Assembly (NCBI GenBank): GCA_020051775.1 | Contig: JAGVQJ010000153.1 | Span: forward strand, 4,115-68,114 | Direction of reading: 5' to 3' | DNA: 64,000 nt | Source of the DNA: Calditrichota bacterium | GTDB taxonomy: Bacteria; Electryoneota; B3-LCP | Shown here: positions 2,408 through 54,266 of the stretch, piece by piece | Position numbering within the stretch: the first letter of the stretch is position 1 | How the letters are laid out: each line of letters starts with the position of its first letter | Position numbers and translations under genes: made by a program | The notes under the pieces: generated by a model | Told to the model about the DNA's origin: nothing | The model's database searches: none | The model's input: the letters and a program-made list of their open reading frames with translations, nothing else

Positions 2408-2493
2408 TGCCGGGGGCGGGAATCGAACCCGCATGAGCGCTAAGGCCCGGGGGATTTTGAGTCCCCTGCGTCTACCAGTTTCACCACCCCGGC
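2408..2493 (-). tRNA. tRNA-Leu(CAA), type II with a long variable arm
   Basis: Hand-folded from the reverse complement. The acceptor stem is GCCGGGG/CCCCGGC. The D arm (GUG-AAACUGGUAGA-CGC) is typical of tRNA-Leu. The anticodon stem-loop is GGGGA-CUCAAAA-UCCCC, giving anticodon CAA. The variable arm is 17 nt. The T arm is GCGGG-TTCGATT-CCCGC. The discriminator is A and no CCA is encoded. Confidence 0.8.
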
Positions 2494-7448: not shown

Positions 7449-10400
7449 ATGCATTCCGTCCGGTACGTCGCTTTAATCGCTCTTCTGGTACTTTTACAGT
7501 CGGTCCTGTTTGCGGCTGATTCGTATATTCAAACTCCAACCGGTGAGATCAAAGGCCGCCTGGTAGTGGAATTGGACGAAAGCTTGGGATCAATTCAGAC
7601 TGATACTCAGTCAGGGGTGGCACAAATCGGTTTTCCAGCACTCGATGCCTTGGCACGCCAATACCGTGTGTACTCCTTCAGTCGCGCTTTCCCAGGAGTC
7701 CCCAAACCGGAAGGGGGAGAATTCCTGGATATGACAAGGTACTATCTGCTGGAATTTCCTGTAGGAGTGAATCTGAATGCCATCGCTCACGATTATTCTG
7801 TGCAACCGGGAATTCTTTCGACTCATTTTGACCGGATGATTGCTCTGGACTATATCCCCAACGATCCTTCCTGGGGGTCGCAGTGGGCTTTGACTACGGT
7901 GCAAGCGCCAGTGGCATTTGATTATTGCCAGGGCAGCACGACTGTAAAAGTCGGCATCGTGGATTCCGGCATTGATACCACTCACAGCGACCTGAAAAAC
8001 AACCTTTGGGTCAATCCCGGAGAGGACTTAAACCACAACGGCATCATCGAATTGATCGAATGGAATGGTATGGATGATGACGGAAATGGCTATCCCGACG
8101 ATTTCTACGGCTGGAACTTCTACGGTAGTAACAATGACGTCCAGGATCTACCCACTTCACAGAATGGCGGGCATGGCACTCACTGTGCAGGTGACGCATC
8201 CGCTGTAACAAATAATGGCGTAGGCATCGCCAGTTTGGGCTATAAAGCCAAAATCATCACGGCGCGAGCTGGTTTGGGACTGACAGTCAGCGTCATCGCC
8301 GCCGCCAACGGCATGAATTACTGTACCATGCAGGGCGCCAAAGCGATCAACCTTTCCTTCGGCAGCAGCTCGACAGATCCTTTCTTGCCCGGCTCTATTT
8401 CCTACGCCTGGAGCCAGGGAGTAGCCGTTTTCGCTTCGGCAGGTAATTCCAACTCTTCTGCCGTGCACTACCCAGCGGCTTACGATTACACTGTGGCGGT
8501 AGCTTCTACGAATGCCAGCGATCAGAAATCCTGGTTCTCGAATTATGGCACCTGGGTGGATCTATGCGCCCCCGGTGATGGCATCCTTAGTACCGTGCCA
8601 CCCAACACCTACGTGGCCTGGGACGGAACTTCATTCTCCACGCCTATCACCGTCGGCTTGGCCGCTCTGGTCTGGGCCGCGAAACCGTCCTGGACCAATC
8701 AGCAGGTCATCACGCACATTCAGAACACCTGCACGAATATAAATGCCCAGAATCCGAGCTACATCGGCATGTTGGGAACGGGGCGCATCAACGCCGGTAA
8801 TGCCATCGGTTCGCTTTACCCCAATTTATCCTATGTCGAACAGCTATTCAACGATAGCTTGGGTGGCAACAACAATCATCGGCCCGATCCCGGTGAAAGC
8901 GTGCAGTTGTGGTTGACCCTTCGCAACACCTCCTCCACTATCCCCGCGACGGGCGTGCAGGTGTCGGTCACCTGTTCCGACACGACCATCACTTTGACGC
9001 AGACCAGCTCCGTTTTTGGCACGATCAATCCCGGTCAAATGGTCAACAATCACGCCAGCCCCATCGCTTTTACGGTGAGTCAGACGGCTCAAGCCCACAA
9101 CGCCACCTTTGTGCTCACTTTGACGGAAACCGGAATGGGGGTCACTCAGGTCACCAACCTGGTGCAACAAATCGGTCAACCGTTGCTGTTGCTGGTGGAC
9201 GATGCCGGAGCCAATTTATTCGGGCCTTACTATACCCAGACGCTGGATAGCCTGGGAATGGGTTACCAATACTGGAGCGTTAATTCGCAGGGCGTCCCGG
9301 ATACAGCTTACGCCAATGACTTCCCCATGATGATCTGGTTTACCGGCATGGTTTCCAGCAGTGTAATTTCGACAACGGAACAGACACTGATTCAGACGTA
9401 CTTGAACAACGGCGGTAAGCTGTTCATCAATGGACAGAACATCGCCCAATCCCTGAATACCGCTTCGCCGACTTTTTTGCACAACACGTTGCATGCTAAT
9501 TTCGGCACAGCCAACACCATGGTTCAGGTATTGAACGGTGTCGCCGGCAATCCCATCGGCAACGGCCTCAATCTGGACTGTTCCCTGGGGGGCAGCGGAT
9601 CGGGATCGAACATCAATCCGGATGGCATCAGCGTGATCGCACCCGCCGGTGAAGCATTCATCTATCAAAGTTCGGCTTATCGCGGAGGCTTAACGTATAC
9701 GGGCACAAGCAACGAAATGCTGGTCTTTTTCTCCTTCGCCTACGAAGCCATCAGCGGCCAAAACAGCACGGCCGATCGCTACCAGGTGATGTCAACCATT
9801 CTGTCATGGTTTGGAGCCGCGCCGCCTCCGCCGCCACCCGCTCTGGACGTGACACTCACACCAGTCAATCCGCCCATTACCATCCCAGCTAATGGCGGCA
9901 GCTTTCAATTCAACGCTGCGGTGCTGCGGACTACAGGCCCGCAAGCCCCCTTCTATGGTTGGGCGCGCATGAAGTATCCCAACGGCACCTACAGCAATCC
10001 CACTCTGGGGCCGGTGCAGATCAATCCGCCAGTGGGCGTGACCATTACTCGTTTGCGCATTCAAAACATCGCCTCCACCCATCCATCTGGGATAACGACC
10101 TACCTCGGTTATGCCAACACTACCTTCACCTACCCGGCTATGGACAGCAGCTTTTTCACCTTTACCAAGCTGGCAATCGCAGACAACGGCCCCTGGGTGA
10201 ATAACAGCACTTGCTCCGGCGAACCGTTCCCGGGCGAAATCATGACTTCAACGCCGGAGGCGTTTTCCTTAGTAAGCATCAATCCAAATCCGTTCAATCC
10301 GGCCACGAGCATCAGATATCAGCTTTCGCCTTCAAGCCGCGTCAGCTTGAAAGTGTATGATATGGCAGGACGATTGGTTGCAGAGCTGGTAAATGGGACG

Positions 10401-16896: not shown

Positions 16897-18477
16897 ATGT
16901 CTAAGAAGGTAAAACCAAGAGGACACTATACACCACTAACAAAGCATAAAAAGGAGGGGACCTTACTAAAATCTCCTCTTGGAAGTTATTCAAATTTGGA
17001 GGTCATTGATTGGCCACGAGATTTACTTCCAGAGCATCTTTGGATTGCATCATTGGCTGAATATCATACTCTAGATTCTTGCTATTTGCCTTTTTATAAA
17101 TTCATGGATGCTCTCGACGAATATATACCTGAAGGTAAACAAGCAATAGGTCTAATTTCCGATTTTTCTTTAGTTCCTGATATTAAAAGATCAGAATTTA
17201 TTCAAAAGCACGACTTGCTAATCGAGGCAAGTTTTTATCACCCAGTAGGTCGAATATTATCTCTTTATCCAGAAAATCCAGCTGCATGGCTTATCAGTAA
17301 AGTCTCGTTAGAGCGTGATGGCCATTTAGATCCGTTGGTAGAACTTGCGCATCTTAGAAATTTGGTTATCAAATTATTAGATGGTAAAGATGCATTCTCT
17401 GGTCTCATAAGATCGCTACCATTCGGAAGACTTTTAAAGCACGGTAAATTTAAATTTGCTGCTGGTATGGGAGTTATTGATTTGATACCAAAATATCCGG
17501 TGAAATGTACTGATGAAGAGAAACGATATGTGGAATCTCAAACTAGGATGGCGGTGAATGCGGCCATTCAATTAGATGAACTTTACAAAGCACATATCTG
17601 GCCTAAGCAATTTTGGAATAATAATTTTTACATGACAATTTGTAGGCCAGTATTTATTGTATCACCTGGGGCAAAACCCTTAATAGATGACGAAATTTCA
17701 ACAATTTCCAATAAATTAAAAACGAACTCAAAAATTGCTTTTGAATATCTTGAGAAAATTCGACGAGAGGCAAAATGTGATTTATATAACTCTTCAAAAG
17801 ACGAAGTGTTATTTGGATTAATTTCTCGTTTAATTCGTTTATATTTACTTTTCGCAAATGATCAAAATCTTTGGAGCAAAGACGTTGGAGGCATTATATT
17901 GCGTTGCTTAGCCGATACAGCAATTACATTTGCCTATTTAGCAAAGAAAGGCGATAATGAGTTATTTATGAAATTTATTGAATACGGCCAAGGCCAAGAG
18001 AAACTTCATTTACTACATCTGCAAGATAATTATCCAGACTCTAAATCACTAGATGGAAGGGATACAGATTCTATAGCTGAAGAGCTCGGAGGGTTCTCCA
18101 TAGAGATGATGAATATAGAACTTGGTCAATGGACAAAAAAAGATACAAGGCAACTTGCGAAGGATGCTGGCATGCAGGATGTCTACAGACTTGTATTTTC
18201 ACCTACCAGTGGAGATGTTCATGGTACTTGGGCAAGTTTAGTACAATCAAATCTCTGCGTTTGCACTGAGCCATTACACCGTGGACATAGGCTACCATCC
18301 ACCTTGCTACCACCTGTTTATTATGGTATAATCTGGGTTACGCAACATATTCTAGAAGAATCTCTAAAAATCGGAATTGATCTTTTGAATTTTCCAACCT
18401 TAGTTAAAGAGCTTGAGCCACTACCTCTTTTGGATTCAAACAGAGAATCAGAAAAATCAGGATTACAGGCAACGTGA
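16897..18477 (+). CDS. Hypothetical 526-aa, predicted mostly alpha-helical protein of unknown family on a low-GC island
   Basis: Long ORF with an AGGAAA ribosome-binding site. A sampled 60-nt stretch (17041-17100) is 32% GC, against about 55% in the flanks. I recognise no motif. Its stop overlaps the GTG start of purL (GTGA). Confidence 0.55.
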
Positions 18478-25562: not shown

Positions 25563-26879
25563 ATGCCCGAAGCTACTATGGACAAAATCGTCGCGCTGGC
25601 CAAGCGGCGCGGCTTTGTGTTTCCCTCCTCCGAAATATACGGTGGCCTGAATTCCTGCTGGGACTACGGCCCCTTCGGCGTCGAACTGAAGAAGAACATT
25701 CAGGAATTCTGGTGGCGATCCATGACCCTGCGGCCTGATGTGGTCGGCCTGGACGCCAGTATCCTGATGCACCCCAAGGTCTGGGAAGCATCCGGACACG
25801 TAGAGAACTTCACCGATCCACTGGTGGACTGCCGGCAGTGCAAGGCGCGCTTCCGGGAAGACGAGATCCCGCCGGAGAAAATGGCAAAACGCCAATGCCC
25901 CAACTGCGGCAACAAGGACACCCTGACCGAAGCCCGCCGCTTCAATCTGATGTTCAAGACTTTCATGGGGCCGGTGGAAGAAGACGCCTCGGTTGTGTAT
26001 CTACGTCCGGAAACCGCGCAGGGGATATACGTCAATTACCTGAACGTGCAGACCACCACCCGGTTGAAAGTCCCCTTCGGCATTGCGCAGGTGGGCAAGG
26101 CTTTTCGCAACGAGATTACTCCCGGCAACTTCATCTTTCGCACGCGGGAATTCGAGCAGATGGAGATGCAGTTCTTCGTCAAACCGGGCGAGGATGGGAA
26201 GTGGTTCGAGTACTGGCGCAACCAGCGCATGGAGTACTACCAGAAACTGGGCATCCGACCGGAGAAACTGCGCTTTCATCCTCATGAGAAGGACGAGCTG
26301 GCGCACTACGCCAAGGAAGCCTGCGACGTGCAGTACGAATTCCCCTTCGGTTGGCAGGAACTGGAAGGGATCCACAACCGCACGGATTTCGACTTGAAGC
26401 GTCACCAGGAATATTCGGGGAAATCCCTGCTTTACTTCGATGACGCTACAAATGAGAAGTATCTGCCCTTTATCATCGAGACGTCGGCGGGCTTGAATCG
26501 CACGATGCTGACAGTCCTGGTGGACGCCTACTGGGAAGATACGGCGCATGAGCGCGTAGTACTTAAACTGCATCCCCGACTGGCCCCGATAAAAGCGGTG
26601 ATTTGTCCGCTCGTAAAAAAAGACGGGCTGGCAGAAATCGCCGAGAAGATCACCGAAGACCTCCGCTGGCATTTCCCCGTGCTGTACGATCAGCAGGGCG
26701 GCATTGGCAAGCGCTATTACCGCCAGGATGAGATCGGCACTCCCTACGGTATCACTGTAGACTACCAGACGAAGGAAGATCAGACAGTCACTCTGCGCGA
26801 TCGCGACACTTTGGATCAAATTCGTCTACCCTATACCGCACTGGCTCAAGAGATCGAAAAACGGCTGCGATCAGCCTGA
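25563..26879 (+). CDS. glyQS: Glycine--tRNA ligase (class II, alpha2 type)
   Basis: There is strong similarity to Thermus-type GlyRS: KRRGFVFPSSEIYGGLNSCWDYGP, YLRPETAQGIYVNY, GKAFRNEITPGNFIFRTREFEQME and SAGLNRTMLTVL. Confidence 0.9.
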   Translation: MPEATMDKIVALAKRRGFVFPSSEIYGGLNSCWDYGPFGVELKKNIQEFWWRSMTLRPDVVGLDASILMHPKVWEASGHVENFTDPLVDCRQCKARFREDEIPPEKMAKRQCPNCGNKDTLTEARRFNLMFKTFMGPVEEDASVVYLRPETAQGIYVNYLNVQTTTRLKVPFGIAQVGKAFRNEITPGNFIFRTREFEQMEMQFFVKPGEDGKWFEYWRNQRMEYYQKLGIRPEKLRFHPHEKDELAHYAKEACDVQYEFPFGWQELEGIHNRTDFDLKRHQEYSGKSLLYFDDATNEKYLPFIIETSAGLNRTMLTVLVDAYWEDTAHERVVLKLHPRLAPIKAVICPLVKKDGLAEIAEKITEDLRWHFPVLYDQQGGIGKRYYRQDEIGTPYGITVDYQTKEDQTVTLRDRDTLDQIRLPYTALAQEIEKRLRSA

Positions 26880-26889
26880 TATAATATAT

Positions 26890-26917
26890 AAAGCGCTATT
26901 ATCAAGCGCTTTTTTTA
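26890..26917 (+). terminator. Rho-independent terminator
   Basis: The stem aagcgct pairs with agcgctt across the loop attatca, followed by TTTTTTT. Confidence 0.65.
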
Positions 26918-27093
26918 TAATCAGTGATCTCTATCAACCAAACTGGCTTACTTCTCGCATATTTTATGATAATCGGGGCTCAAACCGCAGAAGAATGCAA
27001 ATAAATGCACAAGGATGAAAAAATATCGCCGTTGTTCCCAGGTCATATCTCAAAATGAACTGGATTGATATTTTCCATAACCAAGAGGTCAAA

Positions 27094-29802
27094 ATGTCCG
27101 ACAGAAGATTAGTCTTGTGGCTTGGCTGCGTGCTGAGCTTGTTTCTCGTGGCGAGTCTGGCTTTTAGCGCGCCGCAATGGGTTTCCCTGAACGGTCAAAC
27201 CGGCGCTGCACCGATGGTACAAGTTGTAGATCACAGCAACGCCGGGACTACTTTACGGGTGACGATTCCCGGTTTCTGGAGCGAAGAAAAAATCCAATCC
27301 GGAGAAATTTTCCAGGTCTTAAGCTTCGGGGACAACGCGACCACAATGGAGGTGGGTGCCCCCATGCTGCCTAAGATCGTGGAGCTTGTAGCCATCCCAG
27401 CGCGCAGCGACCTGCGCGTGTCGGTCCGGGATCTGGACATGCTGACTCTGCATAATTACCGACTCTACCCCTTCCAAACGCCCACGACGGACGACCAGGC
27501 CGAAGCCTCCTTTGTCATGGATCAAGCCGCTTACTCCGTCAACGCGTACTATCCGCAAGCTGTGGCTAACGTCTCGGATCCACAAATCTGGCGCGATGTG
27601 CGCCTGACAGGATTGGAACTCACGCCGGTGCGCTACAATCCCGTCAGTCGGGAGCTGGTTGTCGCCCGCTCATTCGAGGTGCGCATCGAGTATTCCGGCG
27701 TCAACATGCACCATGCATTGGATCACGATCCCGTTTCTGTCAATCCAATCTACGACAACATGTACCGGTCGGCCATTATCAATTACGATAACTTACACTT
27801 GGACGTGGATCGCACGGACAGTCCCGGAACCAAGTACCTCGTCGTGGTTCGGCAGGAGGCGCTTACTCACGTGCAGCCTTTGATTGATCTGCGCAATGCG
27901 CAAGGCTACAAAACGGAAGTCAAGATCTACCCGACGACTGGCTTTGACACCGATTATGCCATTAAAAGTTACATCACCTCTCTGTTTGTCTCCTCGGCGC
28001 TGGAATATGTGCTTCTCGTCGGCGACGCCTACCACGCCGGGGGCTCCAGCCAGATTGACGTGCCCATGCACATGTGGGTGGATTCATACTCAGATTCCTG
28101 GTACACTTCGCTGCAGGGCGACGGCGACTATTTCGCCGATCTGGCTATCGGACGCCTCGTTTACGACAATATGACCGAGCTGGATCGCCAGGTAAGCAAA
28201 ACCATGGCCTATATGCAGACGCCCGACTTGACTGCCAATTGGGCTGGTAACTCCCTGCTGGTGGCGCATCAGGAACAGTATCCGCAGAAATATACACTAT
28301 GCAAAGAACAAATTCGCACGTTCAACTACGCGATCCAAAATCCGACTTTCGCCACCGCTTATGGCGGCGCCGGAGCTACCAACCAGCAGGTGATTGACTA
28401 CATTAACAACCAGGGCACCGGCCTGCTGAATTACCGCGGGCATGGTTCGGCTACGGAATGGTGGCAGTGGGGCCCTTCAGGCAGCTTCACGGCTACGCAT
28501 ATCGCTCAGTTGACGAACCTCAATCGTTACTTCGTGCACTTCGACGTCTGCTGCGATAATATGAATATCCCTAACTACAACGGTAATTGCCTGGCCGAAT
28601 CCTTCATGAAAGCCACCGCTGCGGCCATAGCCATCAACGGAGCCATCATTCCGTCCTACACCATCCCCAACCATGATTACGACAAGGAATTCTACAAAGC
28701 GCTTTATAATAACGGCATCTGGCATATCGGCTATGCGTCCAACTACGCCAATGTGGCGGTCGTGACGCTTCACGGCAGCATTGGTCAGTCCAACTATCGC
28801 ACCTACTTATGGTTGGGTGATGCGGCCATAGACCTGTTGACCGCAACGCCGCAGCAGTTGACCATGCAGTATGAGCCGACCATCAACCTGGGTAGCCAGG
28901 ATTTCCAAGTTACGGTACTGAAGTCTGGTCAGCCGGTCGCCAATGCCCTGGTTTGCGCTCAGGGCGCCGGCGCCTATGCTCGTGGGTTCACTAACGCCTC
29001 GGGTGTGGCTTACCTGGTGTTCAGTGAAATGCCCGCGTCGCAAGTACAGGTGAACGTGCGCGCTTCGGCTCACAATGGTTTGGACGCCACCGGTACAGCC
29101 ACGATCATACCAAGCGGTTCTCCGTATGCCGTCGCAGTAAACCTGACGGCGACTACAGCTCTGGTCATTCCTCCCGGCGGCGGCAGTTTCAGCTACACGG
29201 TGAATGTGACGAACAGCGAAAACTACAGCCTTCCGGTACATGCCTGGACCGATTGGGTCTATCCCAACAGCACCATTCACACGCCGTTTATTGATCGTTT
29301 CCTCACCCTCGTTCCCGGAGCTCCACTCAACCGCTCCCTTACGCAGAGTGTAGGCGGATCCGAACCCCCCGGAACTTATCTCTATCGCGGGTGTGTAGGG
29401 ACCTATCCCGGCGGCACGATTTACGCTGCGGATACGCTGGTGTTCACGAAATCTGCGGTGGATGAATGGCTGGGCGAAATACCCTCCCTGGTTTTGGGCT
29501 CTGAAGTCACCGGCTGGGATGAACCGGCTACAATAGCGCCACAGCATTACGCGCTGTCCCAAGCTCCCAACCCCTTCAATCCCGTAACTACGATAAGCTT
29601 CTCGCTACCAATCAGCGCCCGAGTGCGCCTGACCATCTTCGACACCCTGGGGCGCGAAGTCGCCGTGCTGGTGGATGGTTACCGTGTCGCGGGAAATCAC
29701 CAGGCAACGTTCGATGGCTCCGAGCTGGCTTCAGGCATTTACTTAAGCGACCTGCAAGTCGGTGACGTGCATTTATCGGGCAAGATGGTGTTAATGAAGT
29801 AA
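27094..29802 (+). CDS. Peptidase C25 (gingipain-like) family protein with T9SS CTD
   Basis: A signal peptide is present (start taken at MSDRRLVLWLGCVL, with an AGAGG ribosome-binding site). The His motif NYRGHGSATEW and the Cys motif FDVCCDN resemble the gingipain catalytic dyad. It carries the pre-CTD module and the CTD NPFNPVTTISFSLP...IFDTLGREV...SGIYLSDL...GKMVLMK. Confidence 0.75.
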   Translation: MSDRRLVLWLGCVLSLFLVASLAFSAPQWVSLNGQTGAAPMVQVVDHSNAGTTLRVTIPGFWSEEKIQSGEIFQVLSFGDNATTMEVGAPMLPKIVELVAIPARSDLRVSVRDLDMLTLHNYRLYPFQTPTTDDQAEASFVMDQAAYSVNAYYPQAVANVSDPQIWRDVRLTGLELTPVRYNPVSRELVVARSFEVRIEYSGVNMHHALDHDPVSVNPIYDNMYRSAIINYDNLHLDVDRTDSPGTKYLVVVRQEALTHVQPLIDLRNAQGYKTEVKIYPTTGFDTDYAIKSYITSLFVSSALEYVLLVGDAYHAGGSSQIDVPMHMWVDSYSDSWYTSLQGDGDYFADLAIGRLVYDNMTELDRQVSKTMAYMQTPDLTANWAGNSLLVAHQEQYPQKYTLCKEQIRTFNYAIQNPTFATAYGGAGATNQQVIDYINNQGTGLLNYRGHGSATEWWQWGPSGSFTATHIAQLTNLNRYFVHFDVCCDNMNIPNYNGNCLAESFMKATAAAIAINGAIIPSYTIPNHDYDKEFYKALYNNGIWHIGYASNYANVAVVTLHGSIGQSNYRTYLWLGDAAIDLLTATPQQLTMQYEPTINLGSQDFQVTVLKSGQPVANALVCAQGAGAYARGFTNASGVAYLVFSEMPASQVQVNVRASAHNGLDATGTATIIPSGSPYAVAVNLTATTALVIPPGGGSFSYTVNVTNSENYSLPVHAWTDWVYPNSTIHTPFIDRFLTLVPGAPLNRSLTQSVGGSEPPGTYLYRGCVGTYPGGTIYAADTLVFTKSAVDEWLGEIPSLVLGSEVTGWDEPATIAPQHYALSQAPNPFNPVTTISFSLPISARVRLTIFDTLGREVAVLVDGYRVAGNHQATFDGSELASGIYLSDLQVGDVHLSGKMVLMK

Positions 29803-29820
29803 GCTTAGTATCTCAGTAGT

Positions 29821-29862
29821 GAAAAGCGGTTGTCCCAACCAGGGACAGCCGCTTTTCGTTTT
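29821..29862. terminator. Bidirectional terminator hairpin between convergent cargo genes
   Basis: A 14-bp stem (aaagcggttgtccc pairing with gggacagccgcttt, with one G-U pair) has an A-run on one side and a T-run on the other. Confidence 0.65.
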
Positions 29863-29878
29863 GAAACTGGAGCTGTGA

Positions 29879-32020
29879 TTATTTCACCAGAACCATTTTC
29901 ATCGTTTTCGTGAAATCTGTGGTCTGGAGGTGATAAATGTACATGCCGGTTGCCAATCCTGAGGCATCGAAAGTAACCTGATGCACACCCGCTTCGAACT
30001 CCCCATTGACCAAAGTTTCCACGAGTCGGCCCTGCAAATCGAAGACCGCCAGGTTGACGTGATCGCTGTGGGGCAACCCAAGGCTGATCGTCGTGGTGGG
30101 GTTGAACGGGTTGGGACAATTCTGCGAGAGGCTGTAATCAACAGGGATCTGCAACATGCCGCCCTGACCGCAAATGCCCGGCCGTTCCGTGGGCATAGTG
30201 GTTTCCTCGTTACCGCCGCCCGAGACGGTTTTATAGAAGGTGAAGAACCCATCTTCGTAACCCGGCAGAGTGGGATATACTTCACCTACTGTACTGTGCA
30301 TATCCAGCGCACCGACCAACAAGGGAGAGGCGGGGATGGGAGCGGAGATAGTGGCGTTGTAAATCTCATTTGGCTCAAAGGTGTAATTGTCCTCGATTAA
30401 CGCCTGGAGCATTACTACACCATCCTGCATTACGTACCACCAAATATCCGCGGTGTAAGGGATACTCAGGAGATTCGTAACGGTAAGGTCCCATACCAGG
30501 TTTCCTCCCTCCGGCGGGATATAGAGCCCTGATCCCGTTGGTGGTACGATTGACAAATTGAAGTCAGCGGGGACAGAGATATCCGCACGCATATTCCAAT
30601 CGTAAGCATTGGGATCGGGATCCCAGCCGGTGCTGGATTTTATCCAGGCTTGATTGGATTTCAGAGGATCATCGAATCTTAGCAAGGAAGTTGTGGTGCC
30701 CAGGAAGTAATAAGCAACATAGAAAGGACCGTCAGTTTGGACCGCTACCGGATATTCATTCCACCCGGTGGCGGGGTTGGCATCCGAGGCCGTCCACAAC
30801 ACTGCTCCAGGTACACCCCCTACTTCTTCAATTACTTTTATCTGGGCGCCGGAGGCGAAGGGTGATTGCCAAATCTGTAGGTTTTCAATCGAGACGTGGT
30901 CAATCCAGAAAGCGCTGGTGCCAAGACCGGGGTCAAAGCGCATAGCGAAAGCGCCATCGGGAAGCACGGTGAAGCTGGCGCCATAGTACGTTCCATAATC
31001 AACGTACCCCAACCAGGCGGGTGGAGAATAAACCTGGAATTCAATGCTCTTGGAGTCATTATCCTCATTCTCGTCTCTGGTGTACTCCACAGAAATCACA
31101 TAGTAGTAACGATCATCATCGTCAACGTTCCAGGTGAAATCATGGATTTCAAATCCCCCGGGCGGTATTGGGTTGGTAATTGTATGAGTTTGTTGCGCTT
31201 CCAGAGTGCTACTTTCCCCTTGTTCTGAGTACAACATGCAGGTGACGGTAGCTGTTTCGCCCGTTAGCGGCGAGGGGATATCCCCAGTGTTTGTTAGAAT
31301 TGCCTGACATACCGATACCGCCGGATTCTGGTTCAGGATGAAATAGCCGTTGTGCGTGATGGCAGTGACGGCCAGGTCCCATAGCCCGGTATATTCCCCA
31401 CCGGCACGGATGAAATTATCGCCCGGAGAAGGATCGGGAATGGGCTGAGACAGGTTGAAGTAGGTTTTGGAGTAGTTATCAACCGGCAAGGAAGGGGCGA
31501 CGTCGTAAATTTCCCACGGAGCATTCGGGGGACCCTCCGAGGTAATTCTAAGCCAAAACCATTCGTTGGCATCGAAAACAGTCCAGGGGTCGGGGGAGTT
31601 GGGGAAGCTGATTTCATCCCAGAATTCAAGTCCGGGATCGTAGATCGCGGTGATTTCCCAAATAACCGTACCAGGATTGTGAACGATTCCGTTGTAGAAA
31701 TCTTCGAGCAGAGTGATGGTAATGGGACCCGTACCATTCAAATGCAGCAACATTCCCTGAAGCTCGAATTCAGCGATCGGCATAAACCGGGTGGCTAAAG
31801 CGAAATTGTGCAACCCGTTAAAATGCTGGTAGGGAATGCCGTCATCCCAGAACAGAACGTCGGTAAACACATCGAGCGTGCTGGGATTTCCGTTCGGAGT
31901 CAACATGTGCGGGTAGAGGGTCGGCTCGAGATTGTTAGGCCCGTACCCGGCTACGGCAGTGACGTTGCCCAGCAACGCCAGAACCACCATGATGAACATG
32001 ATTTTAATTACTCGTTCCAT
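29879..32020 (-). CDS. Large secreted protein with an unknown N-terminal region, pre-CTD module and T9SS CTD
   Basis: Start taken at MERVIKIMFIMVVLALLG, preceded by a GGAGGAG ribosome-binding site. The CTD reads NPFNPTTTISLGLP...VFDLQGRLV...GMYIYHL...KMVLVK. The ORF track extends further upstream without a ribosome-binding site. Confidence 0.7.
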   Translation of the reverse strand: MERVIKIMFIMVVLALLGNVTAVAGYGPNNLEPTLYPHMLTPNGNPSTLDVFTDVLFWDDGIPYQHFNGLHNFALATRFMPIAEFELQGMLLHLNGTGPITITLLEDFYNGIVHNPGTVIWEITAIYDPGLEFWDEISFPNSPDPWTVFDANEWFWLRITSEGPPNAPWEIYDVAPSLPVDNYSKTYFNLSQPIPDPSPGDNFIRAGGEYTGLWDLAVTAITHNGYFILNQNPAVSVCQAILTNTGDIPSPLTGETATVTCMLYSEQGESSTLEAQQTHTITNPIPPGGFEIHDFTWNVDDDDRYYYVISVEYTRDENEDNDSKSIEFQVYSPPAWLGYVDYGTYYGASFTVLPDGAFAMRFDPGLGTSAFWIDHVSIENLQIWQSPFASGAQIKVIEEVGGVPGAVLWTASDANPATGWNEYPVAVQTDGPFYVAYYFLGTTTSLLRFDDPLKSNQAWIKSSTGWDPDPNAYDWNMRADISVPADFNLSIVPPTGSGLYIPPEGGNLVWDLTVTNLLSIPYTADIWWYVMQDGVVMLQALIEDNYTFEPNEIYNATISAPIPASPLLVGALDMHSTVGEVYPTLPGYEDGFFTFYKTVSGGGNEETTMPTERPGICGQGGMLQIPVDYSLSQNCPNPFNPTTTISLGLPHSDHVNLAVFDLQGRLVETLVNGEFEAGVHQVTFDASGLATGMYIYHLQTTDFTKTMKMVLVK

Positions 32021-32150
32021 TGTACTCCTCCTGAATTTGGGTTGAGTGATGGTACTTTTAGTACTAATGGTGCTGGTACAGATACAGAATGGCAAAAATG
32101 TTAGTTTTTTCTTGCTTAATCCGCTATTTTATGCTTAATTATGAACAAAG

Positions 32151-32354
32151 ACACCGCCCCCTGACCTCAATGGACAGAGGACGGGTCCCGCGCGCCGTTC
32201 CGGGGAGGGTCCCTTCAACCAGTACCCGGAGCGGCCGTTTTATTTGGTGTATCTGCTAATATTGGAAACACCGCCCCCTGACCCCTAAAGTCAGGGGGCG
32301 GGTCCCGCGATTCGCTTCGGGGAGGGTCCCTTCAACCAGTAACCGAAGCGAACG
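32151..32354. repeat. Tandem pair of 87-nt structured repeat units with a 117-nt period
   Basis: Unit 1 spans 32151-32237 and unit 2 spans 32268-32354. Each begins ACACCGCCCCCTGAC, forms hairpin 1, contains GGGTCCCGCG, and then forms hairpin 2. Hairpin 2 has an identical 22-nt loop-and-closing segment (GGAGGGTCCCTTCAACCAGTA) while its 10-bp stem differs between copies with compensatory changes. Confidence 0.6.
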
Positions 32355-32904
32355 ATTAGATTTTGCCTTTTGCAATCTATGCCGATTTCAGCTCTATCGG
32401 ATTTCGGCAAAAATAAATCCCTGTACGGAGAGAATACGCTCGCAGCCGTATAGGGAAGTAGAGTAGTTAAGCGTTAAGGTGAAAAGGATTTTGTAGGCAA
32501 ATATGGAATTTAAGGCGATCCCTGGTGAATCACAGATAATCCCCATCTACTACTCCATTATGTTACAACTGAATGTACATATATGATAGCGGATAATTGA
32601 AAGGGTATGCTGCAAGATCGGCCTTGAGGAATCAGTGAAGCCGAGGCGCGGAAGTGGCCGTTGGTTTGGCGGTTAAGGAATATTTGGCTACTAATATAAT
32701 AGACCATTCCAAGAATGTCAAGTCTTTTTCATGAAATATTTATTAATTTATTAGAATAGTGAATGCCGTTTAATCTTCCCAGGAACTAGTCTAAGGGTTC
32801 GCCTTCTCCCTTCTCAGTTTGGTTATTTACAACGAGTTACTATTTTGGGGAAATTTGCCATCATGTGATGGGTATCACTTCCTTAAGACTTAAGACCCTC
32901 TAAA

Positions 32905-33282
32905 TTGATTCCCACCTTTCGCGCTGCCCCTATTCATAAGTTAACGCTCATTTTCAATAACAAACCAGAGCTTATGCACGTTCTGATGGATTTTCAGGAT
33001 CGAGCCATTCGGTTGACCGAGGAGAGGCAGAAGCACATCGCGGACTTCACGGAACCAGCCGCTAATCTGGCTTCCATTCGTGAAACGCTTCGCCAACCCG
33101 ACGTCATGACGGAAGCGTTTCATCATCCTGAATTACGCTTGTATTACAGAATCTACAGCCGGCGTTCCCCGGACGAACGTAATTTTCATGTGGTAGTCAA
33201 AGTGCGTGGGTACGACATGTTGGTGGTCACTGCCTTTTTCGGCAAGCAACTTCAGTGGGAGGGGAACCGGTGGAAGGATTAA
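32905..33282 (+). CDS. Putative toxin, DUF4258-like, partner of DUF2283
   Basis: The ORF overlaps the downstream DUF2283 gene by 28 nt, which is the usual arrangement. Similarity is weak (H...R..EER pattern). The likely true start is the internal ATG near 32974. Confidence 0.3.
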   Translation: MIPTFRAAPIHKLTLIFNNKPELMHVLMDFQDRAIRLTEERQKHIADFTEPAANLASIRETLRQPDVMTEAFHHPELRLYYRIYSRRSPDERNFHVVVKVRGYDMLVVTAFFGKQLQWEGNRWKD

Positions 33283-33506
33283 AGATTTGGTATGATCCCG
33301 AAGGTGATTTTTTGGAAGTCAATTTCGCCCGCAAGCCGGGAATATTTCAAGCCACTCCGGTGCGAAACATGATGGTCAAACTGGATGATGAGGGCCACAT
33401 CATCGGCTTCTCAATTCTGAATATCAGCGAAGTGGCCGATACGCCGATGGAAATTGATATCCCGCTGAGTAAGTTGCAAATCTTGTCTGAATTGCCGGTC
33501 GGTTAA
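33255..33506 (+). CDS. DUF2283-family antitoxin-like protein
   Basis: 83 aa, with WYDPEGDFLEVNF matching the DUF2283 N-terminal signature (YD.E.D.L.I). Confidence 0.5.
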   Translation: MGGEPVEGLKIWYDPEGDFLEVNFARKPGIFQATPVRNMMVKLDDEGHIIGFSILNISEVADTPMEIDIPLSKLQILSELPVG

Positions 33507-35622: not shown

Positions 35623-35651
35623 TTGACATTTGCACTGGAATTGCTTATATT
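35623..35651 (+). promoter_or_regulatory. Consensus sigma70-type promoter (TTGACA, 17-nt spacer, TATATT) upstream of the cargo gene at 35825
   Basis: TTGACA at 35623-35628, a 17-nt spacer, and TATATT at 35646-35651. Confidence 0.4.
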
Positions 35652-35824
35652 ATCTCACTGGATCATCTTTCCTATTCTCCAGGGGCGTCCTCGCCCACCG
35701 CTAAAGCGATGGGCTACATATATACCAAGCCCCCTGAAGGGGGCTGAAAAACTACCAAAGACGCGGCCAGCCACGAGAAACCGTCACGGTATGGACCGTG
35801 ACGGACCAGATAGCGAAGCGACCC

Positions 35825-37543
35825 ATGAAAACCTTAAAGCTAATGCTGCTGCTGGCCACTATGTGGCTGGCCGCGCTAAACCCTGCCGCCGCCCAGTGGA
35901 CCAGCGACCCCTACCACGGTATGGCGAACGTGTGCGATGCGCCGGGAGAACAATTTGCCCCGAGAACTCACCCCCTGGCCGGAGGCAGAACCTTAATTAT
36001 CTGGAAAGATGATAGAAGACCCCCGTCGGGGATTTACAATATTTTTTACCAGGTTCTCGATTCCTGCGGCAACACCCTCCTGCAGGATAATGGTTCACCC
36101 ATTGTCGAAGGAAACTGGGCTACGGGATGGAGCGATGGGGGGACATTTAGAAACTTAGCGGATGACGGTGCTGGGGGCTGCATCGTTGTTTTTAGTGATC
36201 AGCGGGACGAAACCTGGGACATCTGGGGTCAACGGATAGACAGCTTGGGCAATCGCTTATGGGGACCGTTGGGCCTGCATCTAGTTACCTGGCCCGGACC
36301 CAGCAGCACTACTACATTTGTGGAAGATTTAGTGGTAGATTCTTTAGGAAACTATTTCCTATCATTTGGCAATTATCAATATACCGTACAAGACTATGAT
36401 ATTTACACTCAGAAGTTTACGGTGGAAGGTGACCTTCTATGGGGACCCAGCGGCGTACCGACTTGCGCCAGTGCGGAGGTCTTACAAGAAAACCAGAGAT
36501 CCCTCCCCGACCAGCGGGGCGGAGCCATGATTGTTTTTGGCCGAGAAGAGGTGCTCCCCAATGTATTTTATGCCTATGCCCAACACCTGGACGAACAAGG
36601 AAACCAACTGTTTGGCCCCGGAGGCAGAAAACTACACCACCATAACGGCTATGGGATCGGCATAACAGGTGGATTTATAGATGAATGCGTGCCCGATGAT
36701 GAAGGGGGAGGTGTGTGGTCGTATAATGACAACTACTATTGTTATTTGATCCATTTGGATTCGCTGGCTCAGGAGTCATGGATCATGTTCAGACAGGATA
36801 TGCCCTTTAATGCAACCGTTAACCTGCTGCGGCATCCGCTGGATGGGAGCATCTGGTGGCTGACCAGCGGGCATGGGTATGGGACTGAGCCGCCCGTATT
36901 CTATTCGCTGCAACGCCTTAATCTGAACGGTACTCAATTATTCGGTCCGCAGGGCATCCACCTGCGGCAAGGTGAACAGCTTGTGCCCACCGCCAGTGGA
37001 AATGTCATCAATGTCGGTTATGTGGGCACGCCCCACAAAACCAGGCTGTTTGCCCAGCGCATTGACTCCATTGGGCAAACAGTTTGGGAAACCTCGGTGG
37101 CATTAGGTGTAGCTGCTTTTTATGGCGGATCAGCATTTTTTAATCCCAACGCCTGTACGGATGGAAGTGATGGAGCGGTTATTTCTTTCATTCGAAACTA
37201 CGGCCAATATCCCGGCAATTCCGATGGTGTTTCTGCTCAGCGAGTACATAATGATGGCCAACTGGGTTGTGCCTTAGAAGAACGAATAATTCCTTCTAAA
37301 ACCCGTCTGATCAGATCCCTGAGTGATGATCTCATGGAATACATGATACCTCAGGCAAGTAAAATAAAACTTGAACTGTATGACCTGCTGGGCCGTAGAG
37401 TCGCTCTGATCGAAGAGGGGGTTCAACTCGAGGGAATTCACACCGTCCGATGGACGACCGAAGGACTGGCCGCCGGAGTTTATTTCGTCCGCCTGGAAGC
37501 GGCCGGGATAGTGGATACCGGAAAGATCGTGGTGCTCAAATAA
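35825..37543 (+). CDS. Secreted repeat protein (LWGP/LFGP-containing repeats) with T9SS CTD
   Basis: Signal peptide MKTLKLMLLLATMWLAALNPAAA. Repeats contain N.LWGP.G and LFGP.G. The CTD reads IKLELYDLLGRRV...AGVYFVRLEAAG...KIVVLK. Confidence 0.7.
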   Translation: MKTLKLMLLLATMWLAALNPAAAQWTSDPYHGMANVCDAPGEQFAPRTHPLAGGRTLIIWKDDRRPPSGIYNIFYQVLDSCGNTLLQDNGSPIVEGNWATGWSDGGTFRNLADDGAGGCIVVFSDQRDETWDIWGQRIDSLGNRLWGPLGLHLVTWPGPSSTTTFVEDLVVDSLGNYFLSFGNYQYTVQDYDIYTQKFTVEGDLLWGPSGVPTCASAEVLQENQRSLPDQRGGAMIVFGREEVLPNVFYAYAQHLDEQGNQLFGPGGRKLHHHNGYGIGITGGFIDECVPDDEGGGVWSYNDNYYCYLIHLDSLAQESWIMFRQDMPFNATVNLLRHPLDGSIWWLTSGHGYGTEPPVFYSLQRLNLNGTQLFGPQGIHLRQGEQLVPTASGNVINVGYVGTPHKTRLFAQRIDSIGQTVWETSVALGVAAFYGGSAFFNPNACTDGSDGAVISFIRNYGQYPGNSDGVSAQRVHNDGQLGCALEERIIPSKTRLIRSLSDDLMEYMIPQASKIKLELYDLLGRRVALIEEGVQLEGIHTVRWTTEGLAAGVYFVRLEAAGIVDTGKIVVLK

Positions 37544-48610: not shown

Positions 48611-51600
48611 GCGTCAAACCATTGACTGAACCAATATTTCCGATGATTGCGCATAATATGTTCAAACCTGTAGAAAAAAACGTCAGCTTCCCCAAATTAG
48701 AAGAATCCATTCTGGAATTCTGGGAATCCAGCCGGATTTTCGAGAAGACCGAAGAGATCCGCCAGGGAGCGCCTGAATTTGTATTTTACGATGGGCCTCC
48801 GGGAACCAACGGCGTGCCGCATATCGGACATATGATGCAATCGGCGCTGAAAGATCTTTGGCCGCGCTATAAGGTCATGAAGGGATTTCACGTCGTGCGT
48901 AAAGCCGGATGGGATACTCATGGTTTGCCCATTGAATTGACGGCGGAAAAGGAATTGAAGCTCGGTTCGAAGAAGGATATTCTGGATTACGGGGTTGACA
49001 AATATATTGAATATTGTCGCGCCACGGTGGGCCGTTACCTGGGTTCCTGGGAACAAGCCATACGCCGCATCGGCCGTTTTCTGGATATGCAGCACGCCTA
49101 CATGACCATGACCAACGAATACATCCAGTCGGATTGGTATTTGTTGAAATTGGCCTGGCAGCGGAAGTTGGAATCTGATCGAGTGGAGATCGCCGGGAAG
49201 AGTGTATCGCCACGCTTTTTATATAAAGATTACCGCATCATGCCGTATTGCTCGCGGTGCGGCACGTCGCTATCCAATTTCGAGGTGGCCGAAGGGTATA
49301 AGGACGTCAAGGACATGACCTTGACAGTGAAGTTCCCGGTGGCGGATATGGAGAATACTTACTTCGCCGCATGGACCACCACGGCTTGGACTCTGCTCTC
49401 GAATGTGGCACTGGCGGTAGGATCGGACATTGATTACGTCGCCGTGCGGCGAACCGCGTCAGGCGAGATCATCATCATGGCGCAAGCTCGCCTGGAAGCC
49501 TACCAGAAATACCTGGAACCTTACGAAATCCTATGGACAAAGAAGGGTCGCGAGCTTCATGGAATGCGGTACCGACCGCTGTGGGATTTTCAAACTTATA
49601 GCCCGGCTCACGCCATCGTGCTGGACGATTACGTTACAACTGAGGACGGCACCGGCATCGTGCATCTGGCAAACTACGGCGAAGACGATTTCCGCATCCT
49701 GCGTCGGGAAGGTTTACCCCTGATCCAGAATGTTGATGAGAACGGTTCAACCACCGCAGCTACTGGTCCTTTTGCCGGCCGCTACTTTCGTGACGAAACC
49801 CTGGACGTGGACATCATCAAGGATCTGGCGGCGCGTGGTTTGCTCCTATCCAAGGAACGTTACGAACACTCCTACCCCTTCTGCTATCGCTGCGACAACG
49901 CTTTGATGTATTTCGCCCGCCCGGCGTGGTTCATCCGTACCGCCTCATTCCGCGAGGAAATGCTGAAGGCCAATGCTCATATCAAATGGCAGCCACCCCA
50001 TATCAAGGACGGTCGCTTTGGTAATTGGCTGGAAAATACTATTGACTGGAACGTCACTCGTGAGCGCTATTGGGGATCACCATTGCCAGTTTGGACATGC
50101 GGAGAATCCGGCTGCGACGGGGAAATCTGCGTCGGCGGCTTGGCCGAGCTTCGCGAACTGGCCGGTCCTTCCGTGGATCAGATTCTGCACAACACACAAC
50201 TGAACCGGATTGACCTCCACAAGCCGCTAATTGATCAAGTTAAGATCCCCTGTCCCATCTGTTCAAAACCGATGGATCGCGAAAACTTTGTGCTGGATTC
50301 CTGGTTTAATGCCGGGTTGATGTTCATCGGGCAGTGGGGCTATCCGGCCACACCTGGATCGAGCGAGATTTTCCGAAACCAATATCCGGCAGATTTCATC
50401 TGCGAAGCCATTGACCAGACGCGTGGCTGGTTTTACACGCTGCTGGCCTGTTCAACGCTATTCGCTCTGGAAAATAAGAAGTCGGAAGACCAATGGGCTT
50501 GTTACCGCAACGTCATCTGCACAGAACTGGTCTTAGACGAAGAGGGCCGCAAGATGTCCAAATCGCGCGGCAATGTCGTGAATCCCATCAAGTTGTTCGA
50601 TGAAGTGGGAGCCGACGCCACGCGCTGGACCTTTTACAGCTCCAACCCCTGGAACGTGAAGCGCTTCTCATCCGAACAGGTACGCGAGGCTGTGCGTGAT
50701 CTGATCCTGCCCATCTGGAACTCTTACTCCTTTTTCGTAACCTATGCCCGAGTGGATGGGTGGATGCCTGATCCTCCCCACTCCCCCAATGCGAAGGGGG
50801 GAGATTCAGCGCACCCACTTGATCGCTGGCTGCTGGGGGAGTTGACTCACTTGAACCACGAAGTCACTGGCGCGCTGGAGGCTTATGATGTAGCCAGAGC
50901 TTCCTCTGCTATCAGCCGTTTTGTGGATCAGTTGACCAATTGGTACATCCGCAGGTCGCGGCGTCGCTTCTGGAAGTCCGGCGATGACCTGGACAAACAC
51001 TGCGCTTATGCTACGCTTTATCGTGCTTTAACCGATTTCACTCTCATTTTGGCGCCGTTCATGCCTTTTCTGGCGGAAGAACTTTACCAGAACCTGGTGC
51101 GTTCAGTTAAATCCGATGCGCCGGAATCTGTGCACCTTTGCTCTTGGCCTGATCCACCGTTAGAGAAGATAGATGGCGTCCTTGCAGACATGATGCAGAA
51201 AGCTAGAAATATTGTGCGTGTTGGTAGAGATATACGTCAGAAGAATAACCGAAAAGTGAGGCAGCCTCTTCAACAAATTATTGTTGTGATGGAAGAAGGC
51301 AAAATTGAGAAGGGTGTTCTCGATTTGGCGGAAATAGAAAAAGTTGCAACTAAAGAAAGGCTAGAAGGTGAACTCAGAGAAATCGTTACTGACGAATTGA
51401 ATGTAAAATATTTCATTATCAAGCATGATGCTTCTGATCTGGTAACCTTGAAGGCTGAGCCTAACTTTCGTACACTTGGACCACTTTTTGGGAAAGAAAT
51501 AAATAGTGTAATTCAAAAACTTCGTGCGTCGACTCAAGCGGAACTACTTAAATTGGACCAGGGCGAAAATGTATATATTGTGGATCTATACATCAGGCCA

Positions 51601-54134: not shown

Positions 54135-54266
54135 CGATGCTTTTCATTGAAACTTTGCCCGTTCGGTAAAGATTAAAAGCAGACGTATCAGGCGATGGAG
54201 TTCGCCTTTAACCGCTGAAACAGCTGATGACTCCTACTGGTTCATTGCAGCAATGGAGCGTCAAGA

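Follow-up and report, generated by a model that had tools for sequence, protein, structure and literature searches.

A stretch of 64,000 nucleotides from a Calditrichota bacterium genome assembly (the window; contig JAGVQJ010000153.1) carries, upstream of a minus-strand gene for a cargo protein of the type IX secretion system (T9SS), two tandem copies of an RNA element of about 90 nt, each made up of two adjacent and independently stable hairpins, P1 then P2. The structure of this element is under selection, and its functional strand is the minus strand, in the sense of the gene. Judging from modelled folds and from the position of the element, we lean tentatively, and not quite so far as to think it probable, towards the view that the leader RNA contains a cis-acting module, the probable target of a binding factor, which would set the amount of transcript reaching the cargo gene; our confidence in any specific step of such a mechanism is much lower than in the module as a whole. 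Both copies, in the limits that structure gives them (90 nt each), and the gene are laid out below in window coordinates, with the parts of each hairpin in 5' to 3' order.

32265-32354, minus strand: unit 2, the promoter-distal copy (covariance-model score 134 bits)
32352-32343, 32342-32321 and 32320-32311, minus strand: 5' arm, loop and 3' arm of P1 in unit 2
32310-32307, minus strand: junction of unit 2, followed by GGGAC (32306-32302), which is paired with GUUUC (32269-32265)
32301-32290, 32289-32283 and 32282-32271, minus strand: 5' arm, loop and 3' arm of P2 in unit 2, with a bulged U at 32270
32148-32237, minus strand: unit 1, the gene-proximal copy (covariance-model score 130 bits)
32235-32226, 32225-32204 and 32203-32194, minus strand: 5' arm, loop and 3' arm of P1 in unit 1
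32193-32190, minus strand: junction of unit 1, followed by GGGAC (32189-32185), which is paired with GUCUU (32152-32148)
32184-32173, 32172-32166 and 32165-32154, minus strand: 5' arm, loop and 3' arm of P2 in unit 1, with a bulged U at 32153
29879-32020, minus strand: the T9SS cargo gene (713 aa), with a Por_Secre_tail domain at residues 636-710

The N-terminal 620 aa of the cargo protein are without a known domain, and the protein is rare: only two other full-length orthologs are present among 5.8 billion proteins (43% and 37% identity), and the N-terminal part has 16 representative clusters among 1.84 billion. Each ortholog gene, on contigs L019/L020/L027 and L021/L022, is preceded by a non-coding region of ~700 nt, and each of these regions holds one copy of the element, in the gene orientation that corresponds to the window minus strand. 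A covariance model built from the two window units alone (R1) matched these copies on the gene strand at 60.5 bits (L021) and 57.1 bits (L019), and found nothing else real in 178 kb and 145 kb of window and loci; a weak match of 14.7 bits, at window 50000-50092, was rejected, falling as it does within the gene of an aminoacyl-tRNA synthetase. The element ends 127, 186 and 164 nt from the ATG in the three lineages. Compared in pairs, the three upstream regions have no islands in common besides a promoter, the element (GGGACCCGTCC, GGGGGCGGTGTCT, TTGAAGGG) and the Shine-Dalgarno (SD) site, the leaders being unalignable outside them; within the element the parts conserved across lineages are UUGAAGGG, GGGACCCG and GGGGGCGGUGUCU. 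Because single orthologous copies in two lineages keep the helices, the element is neither a chance similarity nor a decaying duplicate.

One further observation concerns the leader in L019 and L027, the latter being a 98.7%-identical strain of the former: the 730-nt leader (L019 1774-2503) holds 2 differences, against 71 in the other 4.8 kb. A constraint on the leader as a whole is hinted at, though with the differences clustered the contrast is not robust.

The four distinct sequences from three lineages were aligned (alignment A5, fitted to the model structure) as the covariation set. In this alignment 96.2% of pair cells are of standard type, compared with 45-57% when partners are slid by 1-3 columns, and seven pairs are changed on both sides, six of them in P1. 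The first-pass annotation of this DNA, made from the window sequence, had proposed selection on structure rather than on primary sequence, and had named homologs with stems not maintained by compensatory changes as the case that would speak for chance similarity; the homologs prove to be the opposite, the copies in both other lineages keeping both helices by compensatory and wobble changes. The covariation score of 0.358 was reached in 0 of 500 shuffles, and the observed values overall were reached by 0 or 1 of 500. RNAalifold and independent single-sequence minimum-free-energy folds (z = -2.3 to -5.0; -4.7 and -5.0 for L019 and L021) arrived at the same two helices.

Three lines of evidence identify the strand. 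P2 contains 12 G·U cells, each of which is an A·C mismatch on the opposite strand. Folding is stronger in the sense direction than in antisense for L019 and L021 (-55.0 vs -44.1 and -53.0 vs -43.0 kcal/mol), and stronger on the minus strand than on the plus for the two window units (-47.2 vs -43.1 and -50.3 vs -48.6 kcal/mol). Finally, the orientation of the element to the gene is fixed. The functional strand is therefore the window minus strand, not the plus strand on which the element was first described. On that plus strand the hairpin here called P2 had been taken as decayed in unit 1; on the minus strand its two C·A mismatches become U·G wobbles, and the helix is intact save for one U·U.

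The two hairpins are conserved in different ways. P1 has a covarying stem of 10-15 bp whose sequence is variable: an outer stem GCCG/CGGC (UUCG/CGAA in unit 2), an optional small internal loop with 3' A residues, and a middle stem that differs wholly between lineages (UCCGG/CCGGA, UUCGG/CCGAA, GCGGGG/CCCCGC, CUCGAGG/CCUCGAG). Its 22-nt loop, earlier described as invariant, is indeed identical between the window units; the orthologs have a loop of 17 nt, and only UUGAAGGG / UUAAGGGG is common to the apical region across lineages (conserved U-U-G/A-A-A/G-G-G-G). A variable junction of 3-4 nt (UCGC, GCGC, CGGU, AGCC) leads to P2, the core of which is an 11-12-bp G+C-rich helix, CCGYCCYC.../...GGGGGCGG, with a stability of -20.5 to -27.8 kcal/mol for these base pairs alone; five further pairs, between the linker GGGAC and the tail GUYUY, extend it past a one-nucleotide bulge to ~17 bp, and 10 of the 17 pairs never vary. 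Outside the helices the only invariant parts in the four sequences are the P1 apical motif (~8 nt) and the GGGAC linker. All four copies have A-rich 5' flanks and U/A-rich 3' flanks.

In the window itself, a repeat search returned a single direct-repeat family with two 90-nt copies, at 32151-32240 and 32268-32357 (81% identity, 117-nt spacing), with which the ungapped alignment of the two units agrees; the tandem structured repeats of the first-pass annotation are thus real. The 21-mer GGAGGGTCCCTTCAACCAGTA occurs exactly twice in the 64 kb and, even with 3 mismatches allowed, in none of 100 shuffles, and the shared leader, the 15-mer ACACCGCCCCCTGAC, is exact in both units. In unit 2 every helix is perfect Watson-Crick, the arms of P2 (32271-32282 / 32290-32301) and of P1 (32311-32320 / 32343-32352) being each 100% complementary. 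The compensatory changes claimed for the P1 stem are there: three pairs differ on both sides between unit 1 and unit 2 (G-C to U-A, C-G to U-A, C-G to U-A) with pairing kept, and the sequence shows one wobble-type position besides. These three pairs account for six of the 18 differences between the units, none of which falls in the 22-nt P1 loop, the GGGACCCG linker or the P2 3' arm; since the differences spare these parts and are compensatory in the stems, both copies have been under selection since the duplication.

That a tandem duplication of 117 nt happened in this genome is clear. The tandem arrangement is confined to the window, each ortholog lineage having a single copy. Unit 1 shares GCCG...AACGGC, CCGUCC and UGUCU with the ortholog copies in L019 and L021 and is for that reason the more ancestral-looking of the two; unit 2, with UUCG/CGAA as its outer P1 stem in place of GCCG/CGGC, is derived when set against unit 1 and the orthologs. 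Immediately downstream of unit 1 there are short direct repeats, at 32108-32139 (in the minus-strand sense ATTAAGCAUAAAA / ATTAAGCAAGAAA) and at 32121-32130, and a nearby stretch, AAAAUAGCGG, is similar to the A-rich flank with the start of P1: what is left, perhaps, of the duplication junction or of a truncated third unit.

The element is set in a non-coding stretch which, as first noted, is long and AT-rich (GC 0.435, compared with ~0.52 for the window), though it measures ~940 bp (32021-32964) and not ~800 bp. Its landmarks other than the units are these.

32693-32721, minus strand: sigma-70-type promoter TTGACA-N17-TATATT (11/12 positions), with an A-rich tract ahead of it
32021-32686, minus strand: predicted 5' leader of the cargo mRNA, its 5' end placed from the position of the promoter
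32025-32032, minus strand: Shine-Dalgarno site of the cargo gene, AGGAGGAG, kept as UCAGGAGGAG in L019 and AAGGAGGU in L021

The promoter is the only promoter-like site in 31900-33100 and stands ~330 nt upstream of unit 2. On the gene strand, from the upstream gene to the ATG, it is also the best match for both orthologs (L019 1933-1961, 11/12; L021 8689-8716, 10/12), and BLAST picks it out as one of the conserved islands (AAAAA-ACTTGAC...TCTATTATATT), and its distance from the element is ~260-380 nt across the three lineages; as far as sequence can tell, it is likely to be the start of the leader transcript. The order promoter, element, SD, ATG is identical in the three lineages, as is the orientation, and the leader ahead of the element shows no consistent structure (z = -0.9, -4.6, -1.2). 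None of the three has a convincing promoter between the element and the cargo ATG, and expression of the gene would thus seem to require read-through of the element. All three have a C/A-rich, G-poor tract downstream of the element and ahead of the SD. The cargo gene appears to be strongly expressed. A second TTGACA-17-TATATT site, identical in hexamers and spacing, occurs at 35623-35651 on the plus strand, ~150 nt upstream of a T9SS-tailed gene (35798-37543); the covariance model found no copy of the element near it. Genes for secreted proteins may have a strong promoter type in common.

The first-pass annotation had suggested searching for homologs and comparing the element with Rfam. The homolog search yielded the orthologous copies already described and one extra true match, the L019 strain variant L027; the covariance-model search gave no family match in the window or in the two ortholog leaders. 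Rfam 15 at E up to 10 returned for window 31900-33000 only a spurious snoRNA match elsewhere in the region, and for the L019 and L021 leaders only sub-threshold matches (13-19 bits, against 36-80), inconsistent between the lineages. At gathering thresholds the whole window has only a fluoride riboswitch (crcB motif; 54182-54243, plus strand; 65 bits against a gathering score of 34) and a tRNA (2408-2493, minus strand), both away from the element. A search of the literature on LCP-89, on Zixibacteria riboswitches and on T9SS leader RNAs found nothing relevant.

Pattern scans of public collections were equally spare. The conserved core pattern had 21 matches in the metagenome collection, of which L027 is the only real one (the match in L029 was marginal, with a model score of 10.8 bits and E = 0.34, and was rejected), and 0 in viral contigs. 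An exact 16-mer of the loop had three viral matches, all in the same phage coding sequence and due to chance. For the genome collection the pattern, two boxes on the plus strand, had been set before the conserved positions were established: its 15 matches were chance ones in G+C-rich genomes, and none continued with TTCAACCAGTA. The suggestion of a novel repeat or mobile family is accordingly not supported: there are two adjacent copies only in the 64-kb window, and no more in ~115 kb of relatives' loci or, apart from the strain variant L027, in the genome, metagenome and viral scans. Repetitive extragenic palindromes and the mosaic elements they form (REP/BIME), like miniature inverted-repeat transposable elements (MITEs), resemble the element in being G+C-rich imperfect palindromes in an A+T-rich intergenic region that can be tandem; unlike them it is not dispersed, and it keeps strictly to one gene family and one orientation.

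Among the three functions first offered for the repeats (cis-regulatory leader, small RNA, repeat or mobile element), the cis-regulatory leader fits best: the element lies between promoter and start codon, on the sense strand, and covaries across orthologous loci (N = 4). In the mechanism we envisage, the leader would be transcribed from the upstream promoter and the module would offer a static platform to which some trans-acting factor binds, a protein being a likelier candidate than a small ligand; whether the very stable P2 is occupied or free would then decide what share of transcripts continues intact into the open reading frame (ORF), either through pausing or termination of RNA polymerase or through processing or protection of the leader there. 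The 117-nt duplication would place two such checkpoints in series. In predicted nascent folds lacking the P2 3' arm, P1 is intact in all four copies and the P2 5' arm has no shared alternative pairing. P1 thus folds in the same way with or without this arm, leaving no antiterminator alternative, and a static fold with few conserved unpaired nucleotides fits recognition by a protein better than a fold switched by a ligand.

Several observations weigh against this proposal. P2 is the stable G+C-rich hairpin expected of an intrinsic terminator, but none of the four copies has a canonical U-tract after it: the tails UGUCUUUG, UGUUUCCA, AGUCUCUC and UGUCUCCU have 3-5 U in their first 8 nt, L019 having 3. 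(A Carafa-type terminator score, being uncalibrated with modern energies and having incomplete control tails, was left unused; only hairpin energies and U counts were kept.) A terminator scan left P2 uncalled in the window and L019, and in L021 called only a small alternative hairpin; canonical terminators are present elsewhere in the window, for example at 26890-26912. Part of the P2 tail is moreover predicted to pair with GGGAC, and this pairing, together with the missing U-tract, makes termination at P2 doubtful. In the window and in L019 the element is no more complementary to the downstream leader or the SD than shuffles are, which leaves translational control without an evident route. 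No candidate emerged for the binding factor, the covariation statistics are weak with four sequences in an alignment fitted to the model, and the module could be a constitutive stabiliser without regulatory input. As to complementarity, L021 has an 11-nt perfect match between its P2 loop/3' arm (9320-9330, AUGGGGUUGGG) and a CCCAACCCCAU tract (9163-9173) ~25 nt upstream of the SD; it is found in the L021 lineage only.

If the element does not act in cis, it might act in trans, as a small RNA (sRNA) derived from the leader or from the 3' end of a transcript. In the 90-nt unit the P1 loop would serve as the seed, while P2 would terminate the transcript or protect its 3' end; the conserved promoter would drive the transcript, and the unit would be the 3' end of this transcript or be excised at its A/U-rich flanks, in two copies here. 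Bacterial sRNAs typically have this build, in which the loop of the 5' hairpin is conserved, the 3' hairpin is strong and G+C-rich, and the tail is rich in pyrimidines or A-U, and tandem sRNA paralogs are common; the A-rich and U/A-rich flanks of the four copies and the unconserved remainder of the leader also suit this explanation. We nevertheless consider it unlikely. No promoter-like site adjoins the units or the ortholog copies in the three lineages, so that the small RNA first suggested is not supported as a gene with its own promoter; P2 lacks its U-tract; the gene appears to need the read-through described above; and the restriction of the element to the front of one gene family, always in sense and at much the same distance, speaks rather for a role in cis.

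To the possibility that the element is a constitutive structure, whose hairpins keep ribonucleases off an abundantly expressed mRNA or obstruct Rho along a long untranslated leader, we give a little less credence. The strong near-consensus promoter, the very long leader, the static hairpins and the C/A-rich, G-poor tract before the SD are in keeping with it, and long structured 5' untranslated regions that stabilise abundant surface-protein mRNAs are known. Simple stability hairpins, however, need no sequence conservation, whereas here 10 of 17 P2 pairs, the P1 apical motif and GGGAC are conserved; and the element is internal, not at the 5' end of the transcript that the promoter predicts.

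A ligand-sensing riboswitch with P2 as its intrinsic terminator, in tandem here, seems improbable. Leader position, covarying stems, conserved loop and linker nucleotides and the stability of P2 (-20 to -28 kcal/mol for the 12-bp core) would all be as expected, complete tandem units are known in several riboswitch classes, and the fluoride riboswitch at 54182-54243 places such a regulator in this very window. But none of the three lineages yields an Rfam family for the element at E up to 10; the four sequences, too few for a pseudoknot test, show no multi-helix junction, lend no support to a pseudoknot and conserve very few nucleotides outside pairs; no mutually exclusive antiterminator exists; the tail is U-poor, especially in L019; and the downstream gene, encoding a secreted protein of unknown function, suggests no ligand.

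Very little probability attaches to a function at the level of DNA, as a GGGWCCC operator for a dimeric DNA-binding protein or as a cruciform or recombination site. GGGTCCC does occur four times inside the two units, as first reported, with a fixed 24-bp spacing within each unit and all within 150 bp, and GGGWCCC is symmetrical as double-stranded DNA (GGGTCCC itself, described as palindromic, is not strictly so, its reverse complement being GGGACCC). But the repetition is genome-specific: the orthologs have no GGGWCCC in their P1 loop, so that the linker GGGACCC is the sole copy kept per element, and the window as a whole shows no enrichment (8 found, 10 expected). The G·U wobbles, confined to one strand, are meaningless for duplex DNA or cruciforms, and a site 330-540 nt downstream of the promoter would be odd for an operator. 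Scarcely credible, lastly, are a neutral, decaying tandem duplication with chance hairpins, for which the duplication itself is the only argument and which the independent single copies in two other lineages and the pattern of differences between the units contradict, and a short peptide-coding sequence, rejected despite one frame with similar peptides (LKGPSPERRAGPV / LKGTPRERQPGPV / LKGQPRKRPVGPV), since this frame stops after 14 codons in unit 2, has no SD or common start codon and covaries with the non-coding 5' arm of P1, and since tblastx similarity extends to several frames on both strands, as for nucleotide conservation.

Returning to the cis-acting leader module, we find its nearest likenesses among protein-bound leader RNAs. 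Ribonucleic antiterminator (RAT) targets of the BglG-SacY type and the boxB of lambda nut, bound by N, are likewise short 5'-leader hairpins with a covarying stem, a fixed loop and some fixed helical nucleotides, which adjoin a stable hairpin and, as proposed for our element, act on the downstream gene. The element has no sequence or model similarity to them, its P2 has no U-tract, the locus has no linked gene for a cognate protein, and its P1 does not overlap P2, whereas RAT overlaps its terminator. HK022 putL/putR and EAR of the Bacillus eps operons also consist of two adjacent stable stem-loops with a static fold, ~70-120 nt in a leader downstream of a promoter, and put too has two copies per genome; these serve long operons or phage transcription units, whereas the element precedes a single 2.1-kb gene, and it matches neither EAR, which is in Rfam, nor any other family there. 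Tandem riboswitches and attenuators share with it two complete units in series in one leader, both under selection, but differ in having recognisable aptamer features, an antiterminator alternative and a canonical terminator tail.

The surroundings of the cargo gene bear on what the element is linked to. The gene adjoins that of glycyl-tRNA synthetase (GlyRS, glyS), which belongs to a clade labelled by depositors Zixiibacteriota or candidate division LCP-89. Eight relatives with GlyRS 78-86% identical (loci L044-L051, ~115 kb) have the same glyS neighbourhood, with a different T9SS gene or none at the position of the cargo gene, and the element was not found in any of them: on comparison of these loci, it goes with the cargo gene and not with the locus. 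The slot itself, between glyS (with or without a C25-peptidase gene) and a gene pair containing DUF2283 (window 25563-33506, and loci L044-L051), holds a VWA-type gene, a beta-helix-type gene, a member of the window cargo family or none, depending on the relative, and looks like a hot spot for cargo-gene replacement; promoter, leader, element and cargo gene would be a block moving as a unit. The divergent pair of small overlapping ORFs at 32965-33506 (plus strand), the second of which resembles the DUF2283 proteins at the equivalent position in relatives, is probably toxin-antitoxin-like and unrelated to the element. Further off, GC content dips sharply at 17001-18000 (0.351, against ~0.52 elsewhere).

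The element is best filed as a new, narrowly distributed family of a known kind, the structured cis-acting 5'-leader RNA. A bolder description, that it represents an undescribed class of regulatory leader RNA in an uncultured LCP-89/Zixibacteria-like branch of the Fibrobacteres-Chlorobi-Bacteroidetes (FCB) group, a two-hairpin sensor responding to a protein or metabolite, through which expression of a family of T9SS-secreted surface proteins is gated and which has here a tandem, two-checkpoint form, seems to us rather unlikely. With a distribution as narrow as three lineages and one gene family, the general importance of the element is modest unless distant orthologs carry it. Selection on RNA structure is seen in compact form in the tandem duplicate, whose two copies compensatory change has preserved. 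If the leader-RNA reading is right, the element would add a new family of structured leader RNAs to a candidate phylum in which no member has been cultured and hardly any regulatory RNA is known, and would offer a testable handle on the control of a secreted surface protein, a T9SS cargo of unknown function.

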